64,000 nucleotides of DNA from Microbotryum violaceum (lineage: Eukaryota). This document shows positions 45,647-64,000 of the stretch, piece after piece. The notes under the pieces were generated by a model that was not told the DNA's origin, ran no database searches, and worked only from the letters and a program-made list of their open reading frames with translations. A program made the position numbers and the translations under genes. The stretch spans positions 744,001 to 808,000 of the forward strand of contig CDLV01000007.1 in NCBI GenBank assembly GCA_001244265.2, given 5' to 3'. Within the stretch, counting starts at the first letter, position 1; each line of letters begins with the position of its first letter.

Positions 45647-46699
45647 GGTATCGAAGAAGCGAAAGGAAAAGTGGAGCTGGGGAGACGGCGGGACGAAAGG
45701 GCGGGTCGGGGGCGATACGCGATGCTTCGAGTCGGAAGGCAGAGGGAGGCAGGGATAAGCACCGCGCGTGCGATGCGAACGAACCCAATGCCAGAGCCAG
45801 AGGCTGTAGCGGGCGAGGCGAGGCGCCGTGAGCGGTGAGCGCGCTCCCACCCTACTGTGTATACTATCTCGACGCGCACTCGACGCGCCCTCACTATTTA
45901 TCGTCCCCGCGTTTGGCGTGTCGAAGCTGCGACGATCTTTGGGTTCCACACGACTCGACCTCGACGTTGTGGTCAATTTTTTCGACGTGCGGCCGGTGTC
46001 ATCGCGAGATAGTCTCTTGTATGTCAACTGAGTGAACAGTGTTCTCCTCGGAAGCTCAATACCTTCTATGTCCCTTCCAGCCGAATGAGTCATACGCGGA
46101 TATTTCAGCAGTTACCCGACACCAAGCGTGACCAAGGCTACTTCTCACCGTTAAACCCCATAGGCAAAGTGATGGGTCAGCCTCCGACAGGGGCGATTCC
46201 AGAGACAGTGGCCACTCATGTATCCGAACCGAACGCGCCAAACCCAAATGGCCCAGAGCCCCTGTCTGGCCTCCTTTGCGCCGACCGTTCGTGGCGCGTT
46301 GCAGAGGCACTGCCGTTGCGTCTCCTCTTGTGAAAGCGTGTTGTACGCCATGACCCAAGAAAAGCGCAGATTGTATAATGTGGACTATTGTTCTGATAGC
46401 ACCCTACGTTCGCGGCGTCTCAAGGTGGCGGACCATTCAGATGTACTGCCATGAAGAAACCGCCCACCCGACGTCCCCAATGTCAATAGGGTCTACTCGA
46501 CCGCGCAACTCATAGGACTGTCCCACCAATCAGATTCAGAGCACACATTAACCTCATGACTGTCCGTGCCATCTGGTCAACCTTGGGCTATGCCCGGCTC
46601 GTTCAACTTCAGAATGCTGTGTTATGGCATTTGAGGACAGATGGCGCGCTGCTCGTAGTCCGCCGCCCTGGTCTGTGCGCGCGCTGTAGTGTCCGGGGC

Positions 46700-46964
46700 G
46701 GCCACGACACATGTAAGGATATATCCTTACACATGAGTTAAGGTCAATACACAACCAAATCTGTTCATCTTGATATTGTAACATCAACATATAACTATTT
46801 CTGAATGGTGTCTGCAAGGACTACATGATAGCATGTGTATTGCAAGACTTGTAGTGATTCAAAATTTCTGTGTCCTTACCGCACCTCCCGTATCCTTACC
46901 GCACCCTCGTATCCTTACATGTGTCGACATGTGTAAGGATACGCCCGCGCGCGCACGTGCCATG
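46700..46964 (+). repeat. Left TIR with internal TCCTTAC/GTAAGGA motif array
   Basis: Reverse complement of 53787-54051; perfect palindrome TGTAAGGATATATCCTTACA at 46712-46731. Confidence 0.95.
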
Positions 46965-48018
46965 TGGAACGACAGGAGGCGCACTCAGGAAGCCTTTGTT
47001 CACATTTGTTCACCTAATTGTCCCCACACCGCCCATCGACTTCAACACCGTGGCACTGTTTGAATTTTGCGAACTAGCCAAATGCGACCTCCAGCTTTGT
47101 GCCAGCAGGCACGGACTCAAATCTTTCATCAATGAGATTGCGGAACCGCCAACTTCCCGACCGTGACGCCGGGCCCTGGGCTCGGACTCGTTCTGGAGCT
47201 GGAGACCGGCCCCAATGGCGGGCTCCCAAGTCGAGATTCAAAGTCCCAAGCATCAAACGCCAATCAACGGTAGGAACCAGTCGTCGAATCAGGAAAGGAA
47301 ACGGCCAGTCGGTCCCCGAGTCGGCAAACTCAGCGCATCCTCAGGACGATTGTGGCGACCTTCAAGCTGAAACATTGACCTGCACGGTGTCCGCACCGCG
47401 GCTATCGAAATCCCCGACTCCAACAAGAAAATTTCCTATCACCGATCGTACAAGCGCCTTGCCTAATCGCATCAAGTCCGCAGAGGACTGCGAGGAGAAC
47501 TGTGACAATTATGTGGACGATAAGCACAACGATCACAAGGACGACCGTGACAATGACTCACCTTGTTCCACTCGGCTCGCCCACGACACTCCCTTCCACC
47601 ACACCATCAAGCAAGAGAAGTCAACAATGCCTCTCCTGTGCTCCCAGAACAGCGATCCCGGTTGGCCGTCGCTGCGCAGTCAAAGCAGTGTTGAGAGTGT
47701 GAATTCCGCTTCTACCCCGCAAGTCGGCTCGCTTTCACCAGCATTAGCTCCGAACCTCTCCCGTCTAAGCGTTTCACAACCCAAGGCTATTCCAAAGGAC
47801 AGCTCCATTCTTCCCAAGCATCAACATACGACTCTTAAGCTTGAAGGTACGCCACATGTGTTGTCTAGATGGTAGGCCATCGGTAACGAGGCGAGGCGCG
47901 CGCCCGGAGGCTCGATTGGTTTTAAGGCAGTGGATTAGACTTAGTGTCTGAGTGGATTATAGTCTTGCGCGTGGGCCTATGCCTTCGCAAAGCAGACTCC
48001 CTTGTTTATCTTTTCTTT

Positions 48019-48177
48019 AATCACTCGTTCCTCGACTATCGGTTCTGACACTGCGCTGCGTATCATCCTACCGCTGCCACCTATATAGGTTAGTTGCAAT
48101 ACTTCAATCACTTGTTCCTCAACTATCGGTTCTGACACTGCGCTGCGTATCATCCTACCGCTGCCACCTCTATAGGT
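48019..48177 (+). repeat. Tandem duplication of about 72 bp (period 87) within the transposon
   Basis: AATCACT(C/T)GTTCCTC(G/A)ACTATCGGTTCTGACACTGCGCTGCGTATCATCCTACCGCTGCCACCT.TATAGGT occurs twice. Confidence 0.9.
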
Positions 48178-48529
48178 GGTGCACTTTTACATCAACATGC
48201 GCTCTCCCAGCCTGCTTAACAAACGGTTTCACTGAAAATTGATATTGTCCGCTTGCCTTTCTTAGTGTTGATGGTCAACTCTGAGGTTTCCTTGAACCTC
48301 TCTTGGTGACTAACGTGCGGATGATATTTACGCTGTTGGTGTCCATCAACTTCACGGAGACAGGACATTGTTTCGTCTATCTACGAGATATTTTGGAAGA
48401 GGTTGCTGAGCTAACTGGCCTGGCTCTCCAAGGTATGCAAGACAAGATTAGATCGGTTCCCAAGCAACGTTGACAGGCCACTCAGCCAGTTACTAACCGT
48501 TTAATTCGGCGACTTATCTGTGCCTTTGT

Positions 48530-51500
48530 ACAGAGGACTCCTGCTTCGACTACTGTGTGGTCGACAACGCGGCTACGTCATCTACTCACTCGACTCCATG
48601 TCTTGCCTCCTGCCGGTACGACCAACTCGCAGCATTTACTGCTGCGACCGACTCTTCGTACAAGGTTCTCGGGTTGCCCGGCTTCGTACTCGACATCGAC
48701 TCATTGCCAGCAGAAGCAACCATTACCTTGAGAGTGCGTATAGCTTCATGAGTTGACGGATTCTACGTCGTTGAGCTTTAGTCGCTGAGCTGACTCTTGA
48801 TTGCAAATGTCACAGGTCTACGAGCACATCAAGGCTCGACTCCCATTCGTAAATATCACTACAAGACCTCAAGGCCGGGAAGATGCCCCTGTTCCAAGTG
48901 GCGCACCTTCTGCTTCCAAGCACGACTTGCTCGTCAGGGAAAAGCGTGAAGCATCTCCAAGCGACAGGATCTCCGGCAATCTACGTCCGAACACCGAACC
49001 ATATTCAACGGATGACAAGCTCGTCAACAGTGAAGATCATGCGAATTTACCAACATATAGTGAAGGAAGGACAACGATGACGGACTTGATGCTCGAAGCA
49101 TACCCACAAGAGATTGTTCTTGATCCTTGGCGGCCCAACGGGACTTGGGGCGACGTCCTCATTGTTCGTATGGATCCAGGCTCGAGCGGTGGCTTGTCAC
49201 ACATGTGGGCTTTCTCGGCGTCATCATCTCGAACCGATTCAAAAGGGCGATGGAAAGGCCCGCGTTTGGATGCAAACGTCGAGTACAGCAAGTACAGCAA
49301 AAAACGTTGCATGGGCGTGTTCGTCTGTTGTGATCAATCATGCCCTGGCAAGCGTCGACCTCACACATCGCTGTCGACAGCGAGTAGGTCGAAGTTGTTT
49401 CAGGAGGAGACTCCACAGCTCGTCACAGGACGCCCCAAGAAGGCTGCAACCCGCAAGCCTCTCGCTCCAAACGTTGAGAGGCCTTCAGACGAGTTACCGC
49501 CGTGTCCAATCACAAGCTGTAACGGACCGATGAGGCACATCCTGTGCTCCGCTACGATTGCCCGAGGGCAGCGTGAGGAATGCCCGGGGGAAATATATAT
49601 CTGGCATTCAGGGTACCATTTGCATCCTGCGCCTCTGGTGTCGCGTCCGTCCCCGCAACATCTGGAAGAGCTGCGACAATTGCGTAAAGCCGCTCCACAA
49701 GCATCGGCCGCCGAGCTGCGCATGGGACAAATGACCGCATTTCCGCAGGACCCTCGTCATCGGCCGTCCGCCTCTGAGATTTGCCCTGTATTCGACAGCA
49801 CTCGATCAATCTCGAGATACGCACCAAGAGTGGGCCACAGTAAGCGTAATGGAGCCCTGCCCGACACGTTGATGTCAGCTATTGAAGCTGTTGCCAATGC
49901 CGGTTGCCTCGCGTACATCGAAATACCGGGACAGCGCCAAGGGCAGCCACTTGCTGAGCAAATACACGATCCTGATCCTCGGAAGCAACCCAGGAACGAT
50001 GGGTCGCGGTCGAAGTCGAAGATCACCTCCAATTCGCTAACCGACTCTGAGACGTCATTTGGCATCCAGACTCCTCAGATGAAAGCGAGGCTCTCGGAAA
50101 CGATTGACGACCGGCTAGTCGAAGGCAATTTGGGATGGCCTACCGACGCTCACAACACCTACTTTCGCGACAACTGGGTGTTGCTCGCCACGGTCTACTA
50201 TTCGCCAAGCGCTCGTCGCTGGTTTCCGATCCTGTACTCCGTCGGCAACCACGAGCGATCAGGCTTCTACCGCCGACATTTTGCGTACCTATTCCAGATT
50301 CTTGACGATGCCAATCATAGCGTGGAGGACATCGTCAACGGAGTCACATTTGTTGTCGATTATTCAAGCGCGCAGATTTCGGGTCTTCGCCAAGCCATTT
50401 CGGATTGGTACGTGGCACGCAAGACCGCAGATGTGGGACGCTTGAACGTCACGCCCAATCAGGTGTCACAGTGGACTGCAGAGGCTATTCAGATTGGCGA
50501 GACAGCGGCAAGCGGGTGCGCCTTTCACTTCATTGAGCAGGTCAGGAGGTTTGGGGTCCGACATCTCAGTACGCAAATGGAGCGCGAACGATTTGCAATG
50601 CTGGTCAACACCATGCGCAACGCAAAGTCCCATGCATCGATTGAGTCCATGGCAAAGCGCACAATCGACGAGTTTCCTGTGTCAGAGAATTGGATCAAAT
50701 GATGGACACGACCGGCGATTCGAAATGTGGTATTCAAGGAACTCAATGGATCCGCAGAAAGATGCGTGGCTACCACAACAAATGCGGTGGAATCTTCCCA
50801 CTGGCTCCTAATCCATTCATGTGGTGGCGAACGCTTTGGACCGGTGGAAGGGGTGATGCGACTTATCGACTTCGCGAAAATGACAGACCGAATTGAAAGT
50901 CATGCGACCGGTAAGGCCCTGGCATAGCGTTACTACCAACCCATTATCCTCATCTAAAACCATTCTCGCCTTTGCTTTGAAAACAAACGGCTATGTCAGG
51001 AGTTCCACTTATCACGAGCAAGGCAACGTCCGCGCTCATATCAAAGAGATCAAGTCACGCAATCGGGTACCTTCATCCTACGTCAGTGACGCCAACATGC
51101 CTGAGCCTTCGATCTCGTTCGCTGCACCTGCTCGTCTAGCTGGCATCGGGTTTTCTGAGTCACCACAAGGACCTTCAGACTTGTAAAAGGGTCCTGAAAC
51201 ACCACCACTGAGCAAATCAACCAAATTACCTCCTTCCACGTCAAATCGTTCCCGGCAGCAACCAAAGAACCGGTCAAGGCAGGGCAATGGGCCCACTGCG
51301 CAGTCGATGGCCTCCAAAAAGGGCTCAAGACGTGTTGATTACCCCCACAAGCGCAAGATTCCTGACCCGCCGTCTGACGAGCATAGTTCGAACGAATCAT
51401 CAGACGACGTTGGATTGACGCCCTCAATTCATTGCAATTCATCCGAGGCCATTCCCCCGACGGATCGCTCCATCAAGCTCCATCAAACGTCCAATTCCAA

Positions 51501-51639
51501 ATCGAAAGGTAGTCCTCCCCGCTCAGATTTCAGCGGCCCATCGCGACGAGTCCCCGTTGTCCCTATGGCTGTGAGGGCGCTCAATGAAGAAACGGAGTTG
51601 TCCCAAATACGTACGCCTCCGCCCCAGACTGTTGACTGA
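48530..51639 (+). pseudogene. MULE-type DDE transposase with GCM-like zinc DNA-binding domain; in-frame stops
   Basis: KKRCMGVFVC..C..RRP...CP...CNG...C...HSGYHLHPAP (49299-49634); D 50145 (PTDAH), D 50358 (VVDYS), CAFH 50517, E 50790 (TTNAVES); TGA at 50700 and TAA at 51184 with the frame continuing after each. Confidence 0.85.
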
Positions 51640-52139
51640 GTGCAGAGGCGCTGAGGCCTGGCTGACGGAAATCCTGCTCTGATTTATCCTCCGTCTCACA
51701 GTTCTTGCGCAGCACAATGCACGAAATTTGGAAGCCCCCAGTGGTCGGAAATACCGGATACCTCGAAAACGATTGGCCTTCCTCTTGTCGGTCCTCTTGT
51801 CGGTCCTCTTGTCGGAACCTGAATCACAATCGGAGGCAAAGAGGACATGTACGTCCGTATTCAACATTCCCCTGTCCCTGGTTGCATCCAAGTCGGAGTT
51901 GGCGCCATCGAAATCTGCAAGAAAGGTAGAAATGGCCACGCCAAAACCTGCTTCGACGTCGACGTCACTCGAGCGCACCAGTGACAAGCTCCCAGGGGAC
52001 TCTAGATCTGCACCAAGGGTAAAATTCGCTCCGCCCAAGACATCGACGTCGACATCGCTCGGTAGCACGATTGTGCAGCTCCACGCAGACTTCTGGCTTC
52101 GATCAGGTGAAGACGGGCCAGTCGTCATTATCCAAGGCC

Positions 52140-53465
52140 CGTGGAGCGATAATTCTTGCTGGATTGACTCAACGCTTATCGCATTGCTCTCGGTCGCCAA
52201 CGGATTGGAACCATGGCTGCAGTGTCTGGATATCCTTAACACCCATACGGCCTACGTGATTCCTCCACTTGGCGATGAGATGGTGTTGAGGCTCCGCCCT
52301 CGATATTTGGCACTCGAGCTATGGGATGCGATTCGCGAATACACAGCATTGGCTCGAAAGTTTGATATGAAACCGGCGGCGAAGGCCATTGAAGCATACA
52401 CACAATTACGAGAACGGATGATTTCCACTGTGGTTGGGATGTCGAAAGAGCGCGGAAGCCATTTTACAACTCCATTTAAGCGGGGGAGTTATAGTAGCCC
52501 AGTAGTCAGTCAATCACTCAGCAAACCCCGCCCTCCCAAGACGATTAAAACTGGACGCTAATCATCACTTTTTTCGGCAGACCTGGCTCGAGACACTTCA
52601 CTCGTTCACCGTCGATCATCCGCTTCTGCCAAGCGCTGTCACGGTGAATGAGCCCGACCGAACTCTCGTCGAATTACATCTTCAACGAGCCGGGTATTGC
52701 ACTGTTTGCAACTGCATTCAGATTGAGGTGTCCCCAAGACTACAATTTGTGGTTGACTGGCCCCTTCTCATCTCAAGTTTCCACCTGCCTTCGCATTCGC
52801 TGGAAACGTTGTCGGACGTCCTCGCCTCAATCGTTGGGCAACCGTTGAAATTGTACACAGAGGCAAAGAATTCAGGCCGTCGGCATCACAAGCGCAATTG
52901 CCCCGGAGGCTCTTACGTGCAATTCGTTTCAATCACCTCGCTCCCCCGTGTGATTGTGATCAACATCAACAATATTTACCCGGAACATCCACTGGCCCCA
53001 GCTGAGCTACGCTTCGGTGTTTCGGACCAAATGCCAGAGATGGTCTGGCGCCTTCGGTCAGGAGTGTACAACATCAACAATTCATATTTCGTTACGAACG
53101 CGACAGTTGGATACGGGCAAGAGGCCGCATGCTATCATTTCGACGCAATTAAAGGCTCTCTCGCTAGGCCGATAGGGGACAGGAACGCTGGCGGATTAGT
53201 TTCCGTTCTTCTCTACGAGCTAGAAGAGGAGTCATTGAACTTCTTGCAAGCCTTCAACCTAATGCTAACGCGGCAGCGGCACGAAATGTGGAGTCTATAC
53301 CATGAGCCCTCCGATCCTACCGATATCGGCATTAAAGTGTCAAGTCTACCACCCAAAGGGACTCTTGAAGAAGGACAAGGTGTCTGGAAGATGGAAGATG
53401 CGTCGGCTTTTTTTCATGAATGCGAGATAGTGAGTGTCGGGAACGCCAAAAAAGCAGATCAATAG
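52140..53465 (+). CDS. USP/peptidase C19-like papain-fold domain inside the transposon (spliced; catalytic His apparently Tyr)
   Basis: Cys box WSDNSCWIDSTLIALL (Cys 52157), CTVC..C, ITSLPRVIVINI, His-box-like WRLRSGVYNINNSYFVT...CYHFDA; intron about 52506-52580. Confidence 0.55.
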
Positions 53466-53786
53466 AGCTGACGATGCTCTCCTCTTACAACGTTTTCCAG
53501 CGGTGCAGTGCTCCTGGAGGAAATCACAGTGGGGAACATTCATGTTGATGGCAAGTTTGACTCACAAAGTTGTGCCCCAGTGGTCCAGTAAAGTTTTAGC
53601 CTTGTCAATCACTAATGTACTGTACAGTAGGGGCTATGATAGCGGTCAGCAATAGTATGTATAAATAAACTTAGTGAAAAAATGGGCATGGCGATACTTT
53701 GACAACCACTGGTGTGCGGAAAGAGTCAATTATTCACCAGCAGCAGCCAGTGCTCTTTGCGCGCGAGCGTATAGCGTATCCTTACG

Positions 53787-54051
53787 CATGTCACGTGCGC
53801 GCGCGGGCGTATCCTTACACATGTCGACACATGTAAGGATACGAGGGTGCGGTAAGGATACGGGAGGTGCGGTAAGGACACAGAAATTTTGAATCACTAC
53901 AAGTCTTGCAATACACATGCTATCGTGTAGTCCTTGCAGACACCGTTCAGAAATAGTTATATGTTGATGTTACAATATCAAGATGAACAGATTTGGTTGT
54001 GTATTGACCTTAACTCATGTGTAAGGATATATCCTTACATGTATACAAGCC
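53787..54051 (-). repeat. Right TIR
   Basis: Reverse complement of 46700-46964. Confidence 0.95.
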
Positions 54052-54238
54052 GTGTCCGGGGCCAGGCGCCAAGCCACGAGCGAGCGGTCGATCGCGCGAC
54101 TCGGCGACGGGGACTTGGGGCTCACTCGACTAATGAAGCGAACGGCGAACGCTTCCTTTCGACATACAACTCACATTCATCTCCACTTCAATTTTCTATC
54201 TTCTCCACATTTGGCTACCAGTTCGACAAAGAGCGAGT

Positions 54239-55701
54239 ATGGATGCTCATGCTCGACCACATCGGCCACGGCACATGTCGATGCCTCAACAGAATGGAGC
54301 ATCGTCTCGGCCTCGACGCTGTGCTTCGACCGTGGGGGTGACATCGTTCGTTCCGTCCAAGTTGAGGCTCGAAACCAGACACTCGTCGATCGCGCGCTCT
54401 CATATAGGTGGTGTAGTGCCCTTTCCTCTATCACCTCCACTACGTACTACTCGAGCGTCTGATCAAGTGCAATACCGCTCATCGACGATACAAACCCTGA
54501 AAAATGATTCCGATTCAGGCTCGGACGACGACGACGATGATCTACCGCTCTCGCACGTCGTCGGCTCCCGTCGTTCGTCGGTCCGCCTCCACTCGGCGCC
54601 ATCATCGCGCTCGCACGTTTCGGTCTCGACGAAATGCAGATCAAGGCCGTCTTCGAGTTTGGTCCGTTTCGGATCAAACCCCTCGATCTATCATTATCCC
54701 CAACATGCACCAATGATGCTCACCTCCGCGTCGCATCGTCGACACACGTTCAACGATCTCAATTCTCCCCACCTTCTGTCGTCAAATCTCGTCGGTAGCA
54801 CTCAGAGCGGTCAGAACTCCCACCAGTGGATGGTCAGACACTCTCCAAGACAACAGCTCGTTATAAAAGATTGGAAAACGTGCGATAAAAGATCTGTTCT
54901 GGCCGAGAGTATGATTGTTCCAGTCTCGACTCCTCTCTCACCGCTCCCTTCCCCCACGAGACTGGACATGGATAAACTCGACAAGCGGCATCGGTCGAGC
55001 TTGACGAGGTCCGTTTTAAATCAGACGATTGTAACCCGCGCACTGGTCACTGACTCATACCTTTTTGGGTCTTTCCAATTCACAGACTTCAATCTTTAGT
55101 CACCTTGTCGTTCGAAGGTGCAGAACTGAAGAAACAGTTTGAAGAACGTCAAAGCGTCGAAGCGAAGGAGATGGCTGCTCGCGATCTTCGACGTCGGCAG
55201 ACACTGGTTCACACTGCAAGCGAGCCCGTGCCGAAGGATGGCGAGAAGCCTTGTAAACTTGTACGAGGCATTCCCCCTCCCAAGGATCATAAAAGTCGAC
55301 GACCTTTCTTGGCTTCCCTTTTCTCATGCTTCAAGAGCAATTCCGCCTCCGCCACGCCGCGAGAGGAGCCTCAAGGCACCCCTCGAACAACAACCCTCGA
55401 CGCGCCAAGACTCAACACCTCCTCATCAATTGATGAGAAAGAACCCTTCACCAACTTGAACCATTCACGGGCAAGCTTACGACCCCACCTCGCCTCGACG
55501 CATTCGCGCACTGACAGTCTCGAACAAGTTGTCGTCGATTGGCGCGCCTCGAGAAAAGCTTCATCGACCCCCGCTGCAGGCGTTCGATCCCCTTTCCCTC
55601 CCTTTCCCAACTCTACGATTCGCTCGAACGTCCCTGGCTCGACGAGAAATTCAACTTCGGCGACCAAGAAACTTTTGAAACATTCCTGGCTGGATTACTA
55701 A
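54239..55701 (+). CDS. Ser/Arg-rich low-complexity hypothetical protein, probably spliced
   Basis: ORFs of 286 aa and 198 aa with a DDDDDLPLSHV motif; start uncertain. Confidence 0.45.
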
Positions 55702-55874
55702 CCTATCCGATCCTCGAGGAAATCCTCCTACGCCACTCGAGATCACTGCTGCGTTCTGTCTGTGACTCTCATCGCATTTTTTAATCTTTGATCCCATTTG
55801 CATCTTCTGTTTATGACGATATCTATCTGAAGTACACCCGTCCATGCTGTTCATGGGCCTTTTCGTAATGACAC

Positions 55875-55943
55875 TCCTTTTGGTGACGAACTTCTTTCCT
55901 TTTGGTGACGAACTTCTTTCCTTTTGGTGACGAACTTCTTTCC
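55875..55943. repeat. Minisatellite, 3 perfect copies of 22-bp TCCTTTTGGTGACGAACTTCTT
   Basis: Read directly from the sequence; lies between convergent 3' ends. Confidence 0.95.
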
Positions 55944-56104
55944 GTACGCCACCATTAGACGAGCTGAGCGCCGATGTTTCGAACGAGTTCGTGAGAATCT
56001 TCTCAAAGAGGTATGGCGTGCAGAGAGTCTTTGATTACATAATCAAGGAGTACGCACTGAGAAGATTCATTGATACCTTGAACGACTCAAGATTGCACCC
56101 CTCT

Positions 56105-58574
56105 TCACGTCGACCACTCAGGCGGGATGGCGGAAGGTGGTCTGGTCGTGGACGGACTGACCCCCTCATTCCTATCCCTTTTGACCGCTTCCAAAACCTT
56201 TGCCGTCGGAGGCCTAACCCTGTTCGTATCCACAGCTTCGATGGGCAACTCGAACCTCTCCTCCAAACACCCATAAGCCTTGGGCGTCAACTTGATGACC
56301 GTATGCAACGGGATCTTGAGGTAGGGCAATTCCTCCTGGCTCAGATTATGGAAATAAGCATACAAGCACCTCAGAACGGCTTGATGACAAACGACGAGAA
56401 TGTTTTCCTGTCGTTCGAGTTCGATTATGACGGGTTCGAGACGAATCACGACGTCGCGGTAGGACTCGCCCCCTCGGTAGCGGTAGTTGAACTTGTCGTC
56501 GTCACGGGCGGCGTAGTCCTCGGGGTAGTACTCCTCGATTTCTTCGTAGGTCATACCGTCGCAGACCCCGGCGTCAAGTTCGTCCAGGGACTTCCAGGTC
56601 AATTTCTCGTACGGCAGCAGAGAAGCGGTTTGAATCGTGCGTCGAAGCGTCGAGGTCCATACCTGCACGTGAGGGACGGCTTCAGTCTCCGTACCTTCGA
56701 GTCTGAGATGGAAAGGGATTGAACCACTCACCGTTAATGGCCTATCGCCAAACTTTTCCTTGATCAAACTCGGCAAGGCCCTCATGTACTGTTCGCCCTG
56801 TTTCGACAACGGCGCATCGCCACCGATTTGCCCATCGACGTTGTACTGTGATTCGCCATGTCGGGTGAAGAAGATTGATCTTGGAGTGAGGTGCAGGTTC
56901 ATGAGATAAAAGGCGATACGTGATTGGAGGTACCCGTCGATTCGGTTGCACGTCACCTATGGCACGCAAGAATGGCACGCAAGGATTCGTCGGCACGGCT
57001 GGGCATTCGACTCTGAAGACTCGATTTGTACCTACATGCTGCCCCACATTGACCATCTTGCAGAACGTCACCTCCTTGTCCAAGGTCTCGTCGAGTGGCT
57101 CGTACTTGTCCTCGTAGTGCCGAATACGAGCTCGGAAGTCCGCCTCGGCCTGGATTTTGTCCTGCCCATCGTAGTCGGGATCGCCGGAAGCGACCTTGAC
57201 GGCGATGTTGGCTTCGATCGTCGCTGGGTCGGTGCAGATCGACTCGATAAAGAGAAGCGTCAAGCCTGGTTCTTGCTTGATGCGATCGACGAGTGCTTGT
57301 CGCCGTTTCCGGGTCGTGTTCGTCGCGTCTAGTCGGAGGGGAGCATGAGTAACTCACACATTCGCCCGAGAGCACCTTCTCTTCGCGAACTGACCGTGAA
57401 TCCCGACGTTTCCTCCCGCCTTGAGCCAACTGATCAAATCCTCCAAGCATTCTGCGGCCATGGCTTCGCGTTCCTTGGAGGCATCGGCGTTGTTAGCGTC
57501 GAAAAAGTTGGCGGACTGATCGGCCTTTTCGCCCGTCGATTCGGCCATCTTTCGGTACTTTTTCCTGCGTAGTTGACCGACATTGAAGACCTGTTTGAGT
57601 TGAATTAGGATGAGTTCGGTTTTATGTACAACCTGGTAGTTCAGACAGAGAAGCAGGTGGCGGATCGTCAACTCACTTTGACCTGTATGGCGGTCAAGAG
57701 CAAATCATCAGCACAAGCATCACTAGATCTAGTCCTAGGCCACACACTCACCTCATATTCGAGCCACTACCAGTGAGAACAATACGGGAACATTCGATCA
57801 GCATGGACCATCCGTCCCGAAAGAAAGAAGGCTCCCAACGCACGAGAAGGTATCGCATTAGCTTGTTGCTGAGATAGCTCTTGCCCCTGGCGGGTAATCC
57901 GACCATGGCGACAACGATCTTGGCCTCCGAATAGTCAGGTTTCTCGACTGTAGTTCAGATCCAATGATAAGATATCAGTGACGTGTCGTGCCTGTGTTCC
58001 AGTCGACCACGTCTCCTGGCCGAGCTCTCGCGTCTGGCGATACGGGACGGGCGAGGTGCTCAAGACTGACTGGTGTTGCCGGCGGACATGCCAAACGTAG
58101 GATCGATCGTTCGTTGAGTAGCCGAGGTGATATTGGAAACGACCGATGATTGGGACGAGTTGGCGGTCGAGTAAGGCCTGCACCCAGTCATGCGTATCAT
58201 CCATTGTTTCAGCTCGATCGGGCCTTCCACTGGTACGACTGCGCCGAAACTGACCAGGTTCCTTCTGCGCCCCCCGTAGCAGCCCCCTCCTGGTTAGGCG
58301 AGACCATAGGACTATTATCCCTACTTGCCCAACCAGGCAAAGGATCACTAGCATACCGTTCGGGCGTCGGACTGATCGCGCTCGGTAAGGAGAACGGACT
58401 CGGACCAGGCGGACGGGGTCGAGACCCGATTGAGGAAGAGCGATTGATCGCCCCGGGGTGGTTGCGATTCAAAGAGGTTGAGCGGGAGATGCTGGTCGAG
58501 GAAGAGGGGGATAGGGTTGGTGATCGGGTCGCAGAGAAGGGGGGAGAGGCGTGTGACGGTGGCGAGGAAGGCAT
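56105..58574 (-). CDS. Bifunctional 6-phosphofructo-2-kinase/fructose-2,6-bisphosphatase
   Basis: VAMVGLPARGKSY, VFNVGQLRR, DATNTTR, FFTRHGES (intact catalytic His), LDELDAG, YRYRGGESY, CHQAVLRC. Confidence 0.93.
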
Positions 58575-58817
58575 CGCGGGCGATGGGGCAGCGCTGAACG
58601 ATGTCGCACGAGGTCAAGCCAAGGAAGGGATCGGCGGCGGCGCGCAGCTCGTGGCGCCCGCACCCGGGGGGGAAGTGGGGCCCAATCGAGTGCCAGACGC
58701 TGAGGGAAGGCGGCCCGTCTTCGGAACTCGGGCTGCCATGTCCATACGGATGCTCTCAAGAAATGATTCATCGTAGAAAATTTGGTATCTTTTGTATTTA
58801 CCAAACTACATTGATCA

Positions 58818-60170
58818 TTATCGTCTCTTCATAGCCGAGCACAACAGCGCCGCGCTGCCCAGCCTGACCCGCACGTCCTGGTGGTCGACATCGTGAGCTG
58901 CCGAAACGTCAAGGAGACCAGATCATCAGTGACTCCTGTCACTATAAACACTAAGCTGCACAGATCACTCACTGTCTTCTACCTCTCCCCATCGGTTGAT
59001 CTGACTTTGGACCTCGACGTGGGCGCACTTGGCCGCCTCATCGACCGACAAATGCCCCTCGACCAAGCCCAACGCGATCAGATAACTCTTGCTTGCCAAG
59101 ACAGCTCGCTCAAAGGCTGTGAAGAGTTGTCCGATTCAGCGGCGACGACGTGAATCGGTTAGGAAACGATGAATGTCCAGACTGACCCGCGAGCTTGTAC
59201 TCGTCATAATCGGCAACGACACCCCCAAGCTTGACGATCGTCGGATCGGGCTGTTTGGTATTGAGAATCCCTTCGTACTTGATGAGCTCGACGTCGTACG
59301 TCTTGCGCACCCAGTCGAGTAGCGGGTTCCAATGCGCATCCTGCAGTGTGACGAGGTGGTCCGGTTCTTCTTCGTGGAAGCTGGTGCGGGAAACGAAGGA
59401 CGCATTAGAAACGGCGACTTCAACGCTTTCGCCACCTTATGATACGCACCAAACTGTGTCGGTATCGAGATATCGGAGCAAGTTGGCCACGACTTCTGCT
59501 CGCACGTCGGGCGTGCTTAACCCGTCGATCGCTCGGGAGATGATCGAAGTCTGCGCGCAGAGAGGCAGACTCATGAACTGTTTCTCCCTATTGAGGCAAC
59601 AGCAAGAATCACATGAAAGGTCGCACCATGGGTAGTGTGTGGGGCTTCAGAACGGCGAGCTGGTTTTCCCATTCCTCTGCGATGAGTACGGCGACGGCGA
59701 GTTGCTGCTTCGGGAGACTGATCTTGGTCCCTCCCGGTGTCTTGAGCGTGCGCTTGTCCAACATGACGGCGTAGGTACCTGTCAATCGAGGCGCAAGTCT
59801 CAGCCTTTGGGTTAGGAACCCTAGTGGCTTGAGCAAATTCCGAATTGGCTGACCGTCAGGTTGAGGCGACACCGAGACCGTCTTCCAGAACCGTCGCATC
59901 ATTTTCTCCGCTCCTGCACTTGCCGAATTTCATCACTATTTGTTCATGCGAATTTACATGCACTCTTATCGACTCACTTGATGTCTGCGGCTCAGCAGGG
60001 TTGCCCGGTGCAGTGGCAGCGACATCGGCATCGGCAGCAAAGGGCCCTCGAACATGCTGTGTCTGCAAAGAACCGGCAGAGCGAACAAAGATCCTCGATG
60101 GAGTTGCTGCAGTTGGTGTTGAAGTCGAGGCTATTGTCCGGACGAAAGACCGGGCTGTTGAGCGGAACAT
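58818..60170 (-). CDS. ATP12: Mitochondrial F1-ATPase assembly chaperone Atp12
   Basis: RRFWKTV, LDKRTLKTPGG, IAEEWENQ, LRYLDTDTV, WGEVED, HDVDHQDVRVRLGSAALL. Confidence 0.9.
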
Positions 60171-60551
60171 ATTTTGGGAGGTGATCGGCGGGTGAGCGGC
60201 TGGGCCGGCTGGGGGTTACAGCGGACTTCGCAAGTGTCTGGCGCGAGAGCGCAACTTGGCTCCGATCGCGGAGTCTCGCGGAGTCGCCTGCAGTAACTAA
60301 GTAGCGCGAGGGCTCGATCTGTCTCCGCATCTTAGCTTCTTGACCTATCTATATACCTGTAACCCACATCCTTTTACACATACGTCAATTGCATTAGGGT
60401 GAGTTCTATTTGCCTAGCCGGAGCTCATCAAGGGTTCAGATCCTCACCACCGCGCGCTTCTCAATCGACAGCTCTCCCCCGTCCCCCGTCCTGCGTCATC
60501 GCCCTCCGTTCCCAACCTTCCAACGCACCAACCTTTGCACGAAATCCCACC

Positions 60552-61097
60552 ATGTCAGGCCCCTCAACCCGAGCCGCTCGAGCGACCTACCACCCTCACT
60601 CCGGTGCCCGCATTTCCGAAGGACTCGCCCGAGCCCGGCGACCGTTCCGCACCCAAAACGCCATCACCGGTGCCCTCATCTTTGGCTTCGCAACCGCGGT
60701 CTACCTCTACTCGATCCGCGCCGTCGCTCAAGACGATTTCTCCGACCTTGATGCTCCCGTTCAAAGGGAGGGTTTGAGGAGTCTCGAGGATGAACAGAAG
60801 GAACGGGAGAGACTCAAGGCGGAGAGGGTCAGAGAATGGGAAACGAGCGCTGTCTCAACCACTGCGGCGCCGATCCTCGAGACCGCTCAAAAGGTTGAGC
60901 AACAAGTGGAGGAACGTCGAGGGTTGTTGAATGGCGTGGTCGGGAAGAGCGTCGCTGGGATCTTGACTGAACGAGGGATTTGGAACGGTAAAGGGCATGC
61001 GTCGTCCATCATCCCCAAAGCACCCGACGTCGATAGGATCGGCACCCTCTGGGACAACCGAGCCAGGACCGTCCAGGAGGGGCCGAAACTCGTTTGA
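60552..61097 (+). CDS. COA3: Cytochrome c oxidase assembly factor 3-like
   Basis: SEGLARARRPFRTQNAITGALIFGFATAVYLYSIRAVAQDDFSDL. Confidence 0.8.
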   Translation: MSGPSTRAARATYHPHSGARISEGLARARRPFRTQNAITGALIFGFATAVYLYSIRAVAQDDFSDLDAPVQREGLRSLEDEQKERERLKAERVREWETSAVSTTAAPILETAQKVEQQVEERRGLLNGVVGKSVAGILTERGIWNGKGHASSIIPKAPDVDRIGTLWDNRARTVQEGPKLV

Positions 61098-62731
61098 ATC
61101 CAGAGCTCGGAAATCATCGCTTTCCTCTCGACCCCATCTATCCTTTGTATTTGTCACAAGTCCTCTCTTGCAAACCCTCATCCTACGTGATAATACAAAC
61201 AACATATCCACGCTCGACTACGATCTCAGACGGGTTCTCCCGATCCGGTGAGGTAATCGCCGCGAACGAGCTCTCTTCGGTCCCGAAACCCGGTCCGCGC
61301 GTTGCACGTGGATATCCCAACCTTGAAGGTGTTCGAGGCACATGCCTCACTTTCTCACGCATGACACATCCACATGTTGCTTCGGATCGGAAGTGAATCA
61401 GAACGTGAAGTCCTATTTCTCAATCGCTACATTCGTTGGCACCCTCATCACACTGGTAGCTTCCGCTCCCCTCAAGGAAAAAGACATCAATGTCACATCG
61501 TATGTCCCATCCAACTTTCCAAGTCGACTCTGACACAGCTCGAGACAGATCACATCGCGCGTGCGCGCCTTTCCCGTCCCCTATCCTATCTTCACAGTCG
61601 TCGGCCCTACGCGGGCTTCCAACAATCATTGATCACTTGCTCGTCAGTCCTGGTGGTCATACCCCTCCTATTCACTTCCTCTTCATCAACCCACTAAAAT
61701 GAAACTCCGTCAACCCTCCCTTAGCGATTGCATGAATTATTGCCACACTACCGGCGGAAAGTGAGGCCCTACCCCTCTTGAGAACCAAGCAGCACCGATC
61801 AGAGCCGAATGTGACGCTGACTTAAAAAACCAAAACCGCCTCCGCTCTGCGCGCCGGTTCTCACTTTCCGTCACAGAAACTGTCTTAAAAGCTGCCAATC
61901 CATTGGGTACTGCTCCCTCCAATCACCGACCGAGGCCTTTGCTGAGGACGGGGACCACGAACTCAAAATTGCAGCGGGTCATTGCTGGTGAACCTCTCAG
62001 ACTTCGGCTCCTCCTTCGCTATGAATCACTATGCGTAAACGAGTAGCGCTTCAATTAGCAGCATCCGTACATTGGTTGTGGCCGAGTCCATATTTGTACG
62101 ATGAGGGATGTGGAGCCAGGGGAGATTGCGTTTGGTCGTCACGCGTGGCCGAACGAGTTGGCATTGGAAGGGGTAGAGATTGCTGTTCATACGTTCATCA
62201 CAATCTGCGTAACTATGTTCATAATTCCGCCAAATTCGTTCATAAACCCGTGGAATCATCATGGGAGAAAGCTCGGACTCTCAAGAGAGGCTGTATCCCC
62301 GAAATTACCTCTTTTTCCCGTCACCGCAGCAAAGCTTCGGGTTTCCCTCTTGAGCTTTCGCACGGTAGTCTTGAGGCATACTACGAAAATGTGATGGTAA
62401 TGATCGTCGAATACTTCAACAAGGATCAGGTGACAAAAGGCACTGCGTCGTCCGAAACATGCCATCACCCGAGTTCGATAAGGGGCAGTCTTTCAAGTCT
62501 GCCCCGCACCGAGAAGACAATGGGATTTGCGTAGTTCGTCAGATACTTCGTGAAGTTCACCAACCTGTTTGAATCGCTCTCTACGAGCGTAGAAACGTTA
62601 CGTCTTCGGTCATTGGGCCATGTTTTTTAACATCAGCCAGTATTTGCAAACGGTACATTGATATATCATCGCTAGAGCATAGTGGTTTCAAGACCAGCAC
62701 TACCAAAATAGACTGAGGGACAAGTGCCCAC

Positions 62732-64000
62732 TCAAGCATAGAACTTCAGCACGTCCTCAACATCCTCCTTGGACCCAAGGAAGACGGGGATCCTCTGATG
62801 AATCCCAGTCGGGACAATATCCAAGATCCTCTCCCTCCCCGTCGTAGCCAACCCTCCCGCCTGTTCAGTCAAGAAGGCCATTGGGAACCCTTCGTACAAG
62901 AGACGCAGCTTGCCCGATTTGGACTTCTTGTCTTCCGGGTAACCGAAGATGCCGCCGTACAACAAGGTGCGGTGAACGTCCGCGACCATGGAGCCAATGT
63001 AGCGCGCGGAGTAGGGCTTGCCATTTGCCGGGTTCTTGACCGATTCGAGGTATTTCTTTACCGGCCTGGTGAGGTGAGAAACTCATGTGAGCTTTTCTCC
63101 TACAAAGAGGGACGCTGAAACCGAGTGAGGCGGTACTCACTCGTGGAAGAAGAGGGTATTGCCTTCGTTGAACGAGTAGATCTTGCCGCGGGGCGGGATG
63201 CGGATGTTGGGGTGTGTGAGGATGAACTCTCCAATGCCCTGCACAAGTATGGTGTTCCGAGCAGTTCAGCCGCTGCGGATCCACGGCGTTTCGAGGGCGG
63301 CCGTCAGACTCACGTTATCGAGAGTGTAACCGTCAACACCCTTTCCAGTCGAGATGACAAGGTTGGCGGACGATCCATACATGCAGTAGCTGAAACACGG
63401 AGAGCCATCCACCATTAGCCACACTGTAAGCGAGCTGGACTGCAGTTTCTGAAGCGATCCGCACTTACCCAGCAGCGACCATCTCCTTTCCGGGGCGAAG
63501 CACGTCCGATACCTGACCATCCGAACCCTCTTGGACCTTGTAGATACCAAAGATGGTACCGATATTGACACCGGCATCGATGTTGGAGCTGTCCGCAGGC
63601 AAGTCGGAGAACCCGGACCAGTCAGCATTTACAATCTCAAGATCAGAATGACTTTTAAATCAGCATTGACTCACGATCCATCGAGAGGGTCAAAGACCAC
63701 GCAGTACTTTCCACGGTACGGGATGTCGATCAAGATGGGGTCATCGTTCTCCTCGGAGATGAGAACCGAGCATTTTCCTGTGGTCGCGTAGAAGCGGAAT
63801 GAATTTAGCACATTACCTCTAATTGCACTCTCTAACTCGAATACTATTAACTGACCACATGCCCTGAGCGAGTTGATCATGATGTCGTTCGACTATGACG
63901 TGGAGGGCCGGATTCGGCGCGGACACGAACAGCCATTAGCTACGATGTGCGTATTACACAAGATTTGCAAACGCATATTGCTCACCAGAATGTCGAGCTT
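62732..64000 (-). CDS. FBP1: Fructose-1,6-bisphosphatase class 1, 5' part outside window
   Basis: [62 protein letters not shown]. Confidence 0.96.

Follow-up and report, generated by a model that had tools for sequence, protein, structure and literature searches.

An inactive Mutator-type transposon of Microbotryum whose gene family carries a putative deubiquitinase-like domain

What kind of mobile element occupies positions 46700-54051 of a 64,000-nucleotide stretch of the Microbotryum violaceum genome, and is the Cys/His domain encoded behind its transposase a protease that belongs to the element? The stretch (assembly GCA_001244265.2, contig CDLV01000007.1, positions 744,001 to 808,000 of the forward strand) is referred to below as the window, and all coordinates count from its first letter. 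A sequence-only reading of the window had described a complete Mutator-like transposon with a GCM-type DNA-binding domain, a DDE core and a ubiquitin-specific protease (USP)-type cargo, possibly of an undescribed kind. Our analysis suggests, with a probability that we put at roughly 65%, that the locus is an inactive copy of a Microbotryum-specific cut-and-paste Mutator transposon, most likely of the MuDRF branch, and that intact copies carry one six-exon gene joining the transposase to the putative protease.

Ends and transposase of the element

The transposon, with its coding part on the + strand, is bounded by inverted ends and by a flanking repeat. A repeat search of the window found an inverted repeat of 264 nt (46709-46972 and 53779-54042; 98% complementary), and a direct count gave 6 mismatches in 264 positions, 4 of them within the innermost 11 nt. 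Read from the sequence, the direct repeat GTGTCCGGGGC stands at 46689-46699 on the left and, as the same 11-mer, at 54052-54062 on the right. Since these two copies lie symmetrically 10 nt outside the matching arms, they set the limits of the element at 46700 and 54051, with a left terminal inverted repeat of 46700-46972 (+) and a right one of 53779-54051 (-). The terminal 28-mer occurs at the two ends only, with none expected (100 shuffles).

The ends also carry a repeated 9-mer, GTAAGGATA, with 11 copies in the 64-kb window against 0.11 expected, all of them at the two inverted ends. Five copies lie in the left arm and six at the right end, where five are inside the arm and one (53777-53785) straddles its inner edge, making ten within the matching arms. 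This is the pattern expected of transposase-binding sites, a role that the repeats may well have. Mutator elements have long inverted ends (often at least 100 bp) and target-site duplications of 8-11 bp, typically 9; the inverted ends found here measure 264 nt and the flanking repeat 11 bp, the true length of the duplication being ambiguous between 9 and 11 bp.

The transposase frame holds a GCM-like region with the motifs RCMGVFVCCDQSC...CPITSCNGPMRHILC...IYIWHSGYHLHP from 49305 onward, the Cys/His pattern of which we take to resemble the GCM zinc finger. It is followed on the same strand by GWPTDAH at 50133 (D), FVVDYS at 50349 (D), GCAFHF at 50514 (CxxH) and TTNAVES at 50775 (E), a D, D, CxxH, E series that presumably represents the Mutator core. 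In the ESM Atlas, the neighbours of residues 1-545 of protein P0003 were clusters of the Mutator-like element (MULE) family PF10551, with feature scores of 0.89-0.95 and agreement among all ten of the best family-named matches; the structure rows likewise were MULE/Transposase_mut clusters, with template modelling (TM) scores of 0.40-0.56. The ends, the target repeat, the DDE/CxxH motifs and the Atlas neighbours together support membership in the Mutator superfamily, in agreement with the sequence-only reading. A KDZ/Zisupton or hAT identity was also considered and dropped, with no Pfam KDZ or hAT match and with MULE neighbours in the Atlas.

Within this superfamily the closest published description is that of MuDRF (statements on the literature here and below follow the available text of the papers cited). 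MuDRF was described by Cantu et al. (2011, PMC3164196) as "a distant branch" of MuDR, found in several Basidiomycota, with a GCM domain and a DDE transposase in one protein and with 9-bp flanking duplications, and it could be linked to MuDR only after four PSI-BLAST rounds. The group that the sequence-only reading had named therefore exists, and the motifs and language-model neighbours indicate that our transposase probably fits this GCM-bearing branch. WRKY-GCM1 domains have been described as DNA-binding domains of MULE transposases (Babu et al. 2006, PMC1702500). The Microbotryum element resembles MuDRF (Repbase MuDRF-1..3_PSt, PMC3164196) in its basidiomycete host, in the apparent order of a GCM-like domain and then a DDE core in one protein, in a duplication of Mutator size and in lying beyond the reach of simple profiles; it differs, in a comparison made by description only, in its 11-bp repeat and in its protease-like domain, of which the description of MuDRF makes no mention.

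Several observations weigh against this assignment. The outermost 10 nt are poorly complementary between the two ends, agreeing at 5 of 10 places (GGC and two more bases), and the flanking repeat has 11 bp where 9 are reported for MuDRF. No Pfam MULE family (PF10551/PF00872) matched the transposase even at an expectation (E) value of 10, and a PDB profile search returned two chance-level rows and did not find the GCM structure. The Pfam GCM family was reached at E 0.44 with the whole frame and at E 0.029 (14.7 bits, two stretches) with the cut-out region, below the 25-bit cut-off. A distance from MuDR like that of MuDRF, with its four PSI-BLAST rounds, would explain the missing Pfam match.

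Relatives in Microbotryum

With the 633-aa frame 48801-50699 as query, all seven near-length matches were gene models of Microbotryum silenes-dioicae or M. saponariae (85-97% identity). A search for longer proteins added three matches, again all Microbotryum models, with P0024 being 99% identical to the query; no homologue outside Microbotryum was retrieved in the transposase-frame searches. In P0024 (1561 aa) and P0025 (1513 aa) a single model runs from a leader through the zinc-finger and DDE regions and a low-complexity linker to the Cys/His domain, which measures about 400 aa.

The domain has equally narrow relations. A phmmer search with window segment 52581-53462 against 1.84 billion representative sequences gave six proteins, five from Microbotryum and one spurious bacterial repeat protein, and an alignment profile search for distant relatives of the domain found none, all nine matches being from Microbotryum. 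Relatives confined to this genus could neither deepen the alignment for folding nor supply a USP sequence for profile-profile comparison.

The relatives of the domain split into two families. The first is that of the window; the second (P0010, P0020, P0022, P0011 and P0012) consists of proteins with a leader, the end of the linker and the Cys/His domain, without the transposase, and the transposase searches found no transposase belonging to it. Identity between the families is about 55% over the domain (an estimate) and 43% over the whole 576-column alignment including the linker, which aligns poorly. Members of the second family were seen as several near-identical copies on different chromosomes (P0010, P0020 and P0022 in M. 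saponariae, P0011 in M. silenes-dioicae).

Two species have the Cys/His domain in many copies: it is found in full-length models, many contigs carry pieces of it, and the second family has it too. Judged by these comparisons, it is an integral, family-wide module kept through considerable divergence and not a one-off cargo or a recent capture, so that the term cargo, in the latter sense, does not apply. In four models of M. silenes-dioicae (P0004, P0006, P0023 and P0026) the transposase or the domain is chimeric with Copia or other retrotransposon domains (PF14223, PF07727, PF00078, PF00665), which points to nested insertions in other copies.

Gene structure and decay of the window copy

When P0024 was placed on the window by tblastn it fell into six colinear pieces in changing frames, which correspond to six exons on the + strand. 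The leader, beginning MVNSEVS, is encoded by exon 1 (48271-48432) and exon 2 (48534-48733, placed by tblastn with P0024), separated by intron 1 (48433-48533). After intron 2 (48734-48815), exon 3 (48816-50910, placed by motifs and tblastn) encodes the GCM-like zinc finger (about 49122-49680) and the MULE-type DDE core, and intron 3 (50911-50986) separates it from exon 4 (50987-51610), which encodes the low-complexity linker. A predicted intron 4 of 91 nt (51611-51701; GTACGC ... GCTGAC ... CAG), seen in the sequence and in the gene models, precedes exon 5 (51702-52504) with the remainder of the linker and the N-terminal half of the Cys/His domain, including the Cys box GPWSDNSCWIDS at 52151. 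Intron 5 (52505-52580) leads to exon 6 (52581-53465), which encodes the C-terminal half of the domain (CxxCxC in the region of 52692, LPRVIVI at 52941, LLYELEE at 53208) and the stop codon.

This gene is broken in the window. A 1-nt deletion near 48296 shifts the frame of exon 1 (MVNSEVSLNLSW followed by a stop, against MVNSEVSLKPLLATNV or MVNSEVSLKPLL in homologues). An in-frame TGA at 50700-50702 in exon 3 replaces a Trp of the homologues (WIK*WTR for WIKWWTRP, the asterisk marking the stop), and an in-frame TAA at 51184-51186 in exon 4 replaces a Ser (SDL*KGP for SDLSKGP). The acceptor of intron 3 (50985-50986) reads AA instead of AG, and the His-box position at 53085-53087 encodes Tyr where all 12 aligned homologues have His. 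The frameshift, both stop codons, the missing splice acceptor and a Tyr in place of the putative catalytic His make the window copy a dead pseudogene; the term complete, used in the sequence-only reading, holds for the ends of the element and not for its coding part. In models P0024 and P0002 the sequence around the TGA of exon 3 is left out, EFP being followed directly by ELNGS, which suggests that the copies behind them share this stop codon.

Transcripts and the linking intron

An index search found part of the element in 20 sequencing runs from 7 studies, none recorded as RNA. We compared the contigs of four runs (X17, X18, X19 and X5), for all of which the RNA nature is a guess and of which X17 and X18 come from one study. 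The X17 and X18 contigs skip 48433-48533, 48734-48815, 50911-50986 and 52505-52580, with GT..AG joints at introns 1, 2 and 5 (for intron 5, 52504>52581 in both runs) and a joint 50910>50987 at intron 3 that reads GT..AA on the window, the acceptor being AG in the transcribed copies. X18 also skips 53430-53500, an alternative 3' intron (GT..AG, joint 53429>53501). These skips match the gene models' introns; members of the family are therefore transcribed in that organism and their transcripts spliced, with removal seen for four of the five predicted introns. In one contig of 932 nt, 52072-52504 is followed directly by 52581-53079, which connects the Cys-box exon to the His-box exon. The X5 contigs are unspliced and DNA-like (one, of 2806 nt, runs through 49835-52664), and X19 gives little cover, in 11 pieces.

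The remaining intron decides whether transposase and Cys/His domain form one protein. In favour of intron 4 are its canonical GT donor, the CTGAC branch site, the CAG at its end and a frame that is preserved by its removal; gene models P0001, P0005 and P0024 also splice it out. In the first family, splicing would give NEETELSQI-LLAQHNARNLEAPSGRKYRIPRKR, and this product lines up colinearly, to within two residues, with the reading of P0010 from the second family, which has no interruption there (NEWTEERSRCTYLTAQARICQPQSSGKNYRVPRKR; NEWTEE...RVPRKR). Two contigs, 51215-51791 (X18) and 51257-51705 (X17), retain the intron, with no joint listed at 51611-51701, and among the pieces listed none bridges the DDE exons to the Cys/His exons. 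As assembled with intron 4 kept, the transposase frame would stop at 51637-51639 and leave the domain unfused. Together with the origin of the spliced contigs in a single study of guessed RNA nature, this weighs against a single six-exon gene. For the fusion proposed by the sequence-only reading, the annotated models thus speak in favour and the RNA-like contigs against, and we estimate the likelihood that intact copies produce it at about two thirds. By keeping intron 4 the element could make the transposase alone.

A tentative alternative, which we hold to be less probable than the fusion and more so than any of those discussed further below, is that the element encodes two products. The transposase (leader, GCM, DDE and linker) would then end at the TGA at 51637-51639, and the Cys/His protein would be made separately, either from a start of its own (the first Met stands at 51932) or through a different transcript, comparable to the second gene of maize MuDR. 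Besides the two contigs that read through intron 4, gene model P0021, which begins within the linker, would fit such an arrangement, as would the domain without transposase in the second family and in an internal-deletion form found in X17 and X18 contigs. The latter (47404>51820) skips 4415 nt with the ends TC..CC, not a splice; its upstream region continues directly into the linker shortly ahead of the domain, so that transcribed deletion copies keep the domain without the transposase. The word depth of contigs in X17 and X18 is also much higher over 50144-53833 than over 48422-50143, though depth must not be used to rank the parts. On the other side stand the canonical, frame-keeping intron 4 of three gene models and the colinearity with the second family, and the contigs themselves drop rare forms and may stem from defective copies or from pre-mRNA.

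In figures, the word depth in X17 and X18 was about 70-750 over the 3' half and 3-9 over the zinc-finger and early DDE part, contig depth again not serving to rank them; the 3' excess may come from abundant deleted copies or from a separate 3' transcript. One X18 contig uses an alternative acceptor of intron 3 at 50998-50999 (joint 50909>50999). Beyond the DDE core the reading frame would then change, and the product would be a shortened transposase lacking linker and domain. Copies without the normal AG, that of the window among them, may have no other acceptor.

Fold of the Cys/His domain

The peptide motifs that the sequence-only reading had named were all found in place, those of the domain being NSCWIDS (52151), LPRVIVI (52941), MVWRLRS (53040), NNSYFV (53076) and YHFDAI (53133), all on the + strand. 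Homologues conserve them as QGPW-x3-SCW[IL]-x-S followed by helices, GYC-x2-C-x-C, HK-x2-C, SITSLPRV[IL]V-x-NINN, VW-x-[LI]RS then ...HF-x-T-x-A, YHFDA 19 residues past the His, and LV-x2-LFYELE. The Cys of SCW[IL] is present in all eight covering sequences (P0007, P0019, P0020, P0011, P0021, P0024, P0025 and the window), and His363, Phe381 and Asp382 are shared by all 12 homologues. The residue order of a USP, Cys box, then His box, then Asp, is thus conserved, and these residues are the putative catalytic ones. We take the whole series to follow the USP order of Cys box, zinc-ribbon fingers, "LP.vL" strand, His box, "F-D" aspartate and C-terminal "Y.LFY" strand; the His...Asp pair and the LFYEL-type strand presumably correspond, on inspection against the USP consensus.

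Among the 30 nearest ESM Atlas clusters of the domain, 15 had a named family and 14 of these were PF00443 (UCH); the best neighbour scored 0.93, with 164 shared features. The sole Pfam match was to the USP-fold coronavirus papain-like peptidase (PF08715), at the Cys box. This match is weak (E 0.069-0.4, far under the cut-off, profile positions 107-122), and the domain shares with this fold and with PF00443 a Cys box of the form W-x-D-N-x-C-aromatic; unlike them, it has no significant profile match and no structural confirmation. From motif order and language-model neighbours, it is likely that the domain adopts a very divergent USP-like papain fold (clan CA, thumb-palm-fingers).

Several results count against this fold. 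The USP signatures of the PROSITE type are presumably not matched exactly. The 164 shared features lie in the range that the Atlas tool describes as "chance hits or distant relatives", below its 170 mark, and a third of shuffled proteins receive ten concordant families. Neither PF00443 nor PF13423 matched at E up to 10 in ten members, further whole models and sub-segments, no Pfam family reached its cut-off with any part of the element's proteins, and a PDB profile search with the domain gave no match. Two AlphaFold runs (10 and 12 alignment rows) gave unusable models, with a mean predicted local distance difference test score (pLDDT) of 30.5 and 33.0. Foldseek against the PDB with the second model returned no match at E up to 0.001 and no USP among the rows listed, which at such pLDDT is uninformative and was not used as evidence. 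The USP-type assignment of the sequence-only reading is in this way partly supported, by motif order and Atlas neighbours and not by Pfam UCH, PDB profiles or AlphaFold. Other protease classes fit less well: OTU (PF02338) and Ulp1/Peptidase_C48 gave no match even at E 10 in Pfam scans of frames, members, models and sub-segments, and the residue order differs from the His-Asp-Cys of Ulp1/SENP (C48) proteases.

These results bear on whether the domain is a protease at all. It might instead be a lineage-specific fold or a dead USP-like scaffold, with its motif likeness due to chance or to descent without activity, and the fold unconfirmed by any profile or structure method, the five real relatives, all from Microbotryum, among 1.84 billion representatives, and the Atlas count below 170 would all agree with this. 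We nevertheless consider it unlikely, given several USP-like motifs in the right order and spacing, the fact that two families with about 50% identity both keep the putative catalytic Cys, His and Asp, and the single family shared by 14 of the 15 named Atlas neighbours.

Possible function

In the reading that we prefer, an intact Mutator element would produce a protein consisting of a short conserved leader, GCM finger, DDE core, disordered linker and a domain of about 400 aa with Cys box, zinc-ribbon-like CxxC, His box and Asp, in this order. The GCM/WRKY-type zinc finger would probably bind the GTAAGGATA repeats in the inverted ends (264 bp), and the MULE-type DDE(CxxH) core would excise and reinsert the element, leaving a target duplication of 9-11 bp. 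By analogy with Ulp1, OTU and VTD, the C-terminal domain may act as a deubiquitinase and remove ubiquitin or a ubiquitin-like modifier, either from the transposase or from chromatin or repair proteins at the element. The outcome would be a transposase shielded from degradation, or host silencing countered.

A bolder version of this reading appears speculative to us, and somewhat less probable than the two-product arrangement. It holds that a fast-evolving USP-fold deubiquitinase, confined to anther-smut fungi, is obligatory in this MuDRF-type element, made fused or alone through a switch at intron 4 (its retention or removal), and that it serves as a trans-acting factor against degradation or silencing by the host, carried by non-autonomous elements and kept intact for this reason by the transposase-less second family at about 50% divergence.

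It is also conceivable, though improbable, that the domain processes the element's own polyprotein, cutting it to free the transposase in the manner of the papain-like proteases of RNA viruses. The only Pfam similarity of the domain is to such a peptidase, a long disordered linker lies between the two parts, and polyprotein processing has been proposed for OTU-fused MULE transposases (Babu et al., PMC1702500). That Pfam match is far under its cut-off, no LxGG-type site was seen by eye in the linker of P0024, and the second family retains the domain though it has no transposase to release. Least probable by far is a host gene fragment captured once, as in Pack-MULEs, without a role for the element: capture of host sequences by Mutator elements is documented (PMC6431247), but no relative was found outside repeated, element-like Microbotryum models, the domain occurs in full-length models, many-contig fragments and a second family, and it is better conserved than the linker.

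Comparison with known systems

Proteases of the ubiquitin and SUMO systems on DNA transposons are a known theme, of which the pairing of a Mutator transposase with a USP-like domain is a variant. Known transposon proteases include Ulp1 in Mutator and Ginger elements, OTU in Helitrons, Ginger and Medicago MULEs, and VTD in Helentrons (PMC2836005, PMC1702500, PMC9741609), and one Peptidase C19 case has been noted. The suggestion of an undescribed kind of system therefore does not hold. As for the particular combination, no description of a Mutator or MuDRF element with a USP-type domain, or of this Microbotryum family, was found in the literature searched, whose coverage leaves out Repbase Reports and subscription journals; the papers examined on Microbotryum and MuDR had passing mentions only.

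The nearest parallels within the superfamily are the KI-MULEs with Ulp1 (C48), reported from Arabidopsis, melon, rice, maize, hydra and lancelet, and the OTU-fused MULE transposases of Medicago (PMC2836005, PMC1702500). The roles proposed for these Ulp1 and OTU domains are in transposition, repair and polyprotein processing (PMC2836005, PMC1702500). Like the Microbotryum element, in which the protease is putative, they pair a Mutator transposase with a ubiquitin/SUMO-system cysteine protease as neighbour or fusion partner; unlike theirs, the Microbotryum domain has the order Cys ... His ... Asp with a zinc-ribbon-like insert and matches neither Peptidase_C48 nor OTU in Pfam. The C19 case is protein XP_001314237.1 of Trichomonas vaginalis, which combines a transposase_11 (IS5-like) with Peptidase C19 (cited in PMC2836005). 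There too a DDE transposase is joined to a USP-type domain, putative in the Microbotryum case; the Trichomonas protein is IS5/Harbinger-like, from a protist, with a C19 domain seen by standard profiles, whereas the Microbotryum element is of Mutator type and its domain lies below profile detection.

The VTD deubiquitinases of Helentrons are papain-fold enzymes that have spread with mobile elements, act on ubiquitin chains and have an invariant Asp-x-His (Erven et al. 2022, PMC9741609). The Microbotryum domain would resemble them as a transposon-encoded deubiquitinase of papain fold; it differs in that its Asp lies 19 residues after the His, as in typical deubiquitinases, with no conserved D-x-H, and in belonging to a cut-and-paste and not a rolling-circle element. 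Several DNA transposon superfamilies have independently acquired Ulp1, OTU or VTD, and only VTDs have been shown to be active (PMC9741609). If our reading is true, a USP-type module on a Mutator element would be a fourth class of deubiquitinase among transposons, and would strengthen the idea that cut-and-paste elements in general need to escape control through ubiquitin. The Microbotryum case is open to testing, with one family that has the domain without a transposase and with transcripts spliced except at the intron that decides on fusion. Both halves of the protein escape Pfam, so that automated annotation leaves such elements as "hypothetical proteins".

Other features and genomic setting

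Upstream of the six-exon gene lies an open frame of low complexity (47132-47875, +; 248 codons from the Met at 47132), in which a Pfam scan found no family and on which RNA-like contigs lie at 47158-47841. A repeat search also found an 87-bp tandem repeat (1.9 copies, 48015-48177) just upstream of the start codon. In the linker, three copies of a 12-nt repeat (51780-51815) add eight residues, SVLLSVLL, without counterpart in homologues.

We computed a repeat-induced point mutation (RIP)-like index (TCG to TTG) after the preprint 10.1101/2022.08.03.502670, with the threshold of 0 used for Microbotryum. No clear RIP-like signature was found by this index: the element scored -0.12, exceeding all 21 equal-sized flanking windows (-0.42 to -0.25) and staying under the threshold.

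The locus itself is ordinary. Among 40 long frames scanned with Pfam no other transposon was found in the window, and the element is a lone insertion between housekeeping genes. Its flanks (1-46000 and 54100-64000) are, by Pfam, gene-dense housekeeping DNA, with genes for TAF7 (TAFII55), MCM7, glycosyltransferase 17, Snf7, Met-tRNA synthetase, zf-MYND and PQ-loop proteins, as well as Rad17/Rad24, DNA polymerase epsilon, SRR1, 6-phosphofructo-2-kinase (PFK2) and Coa3.

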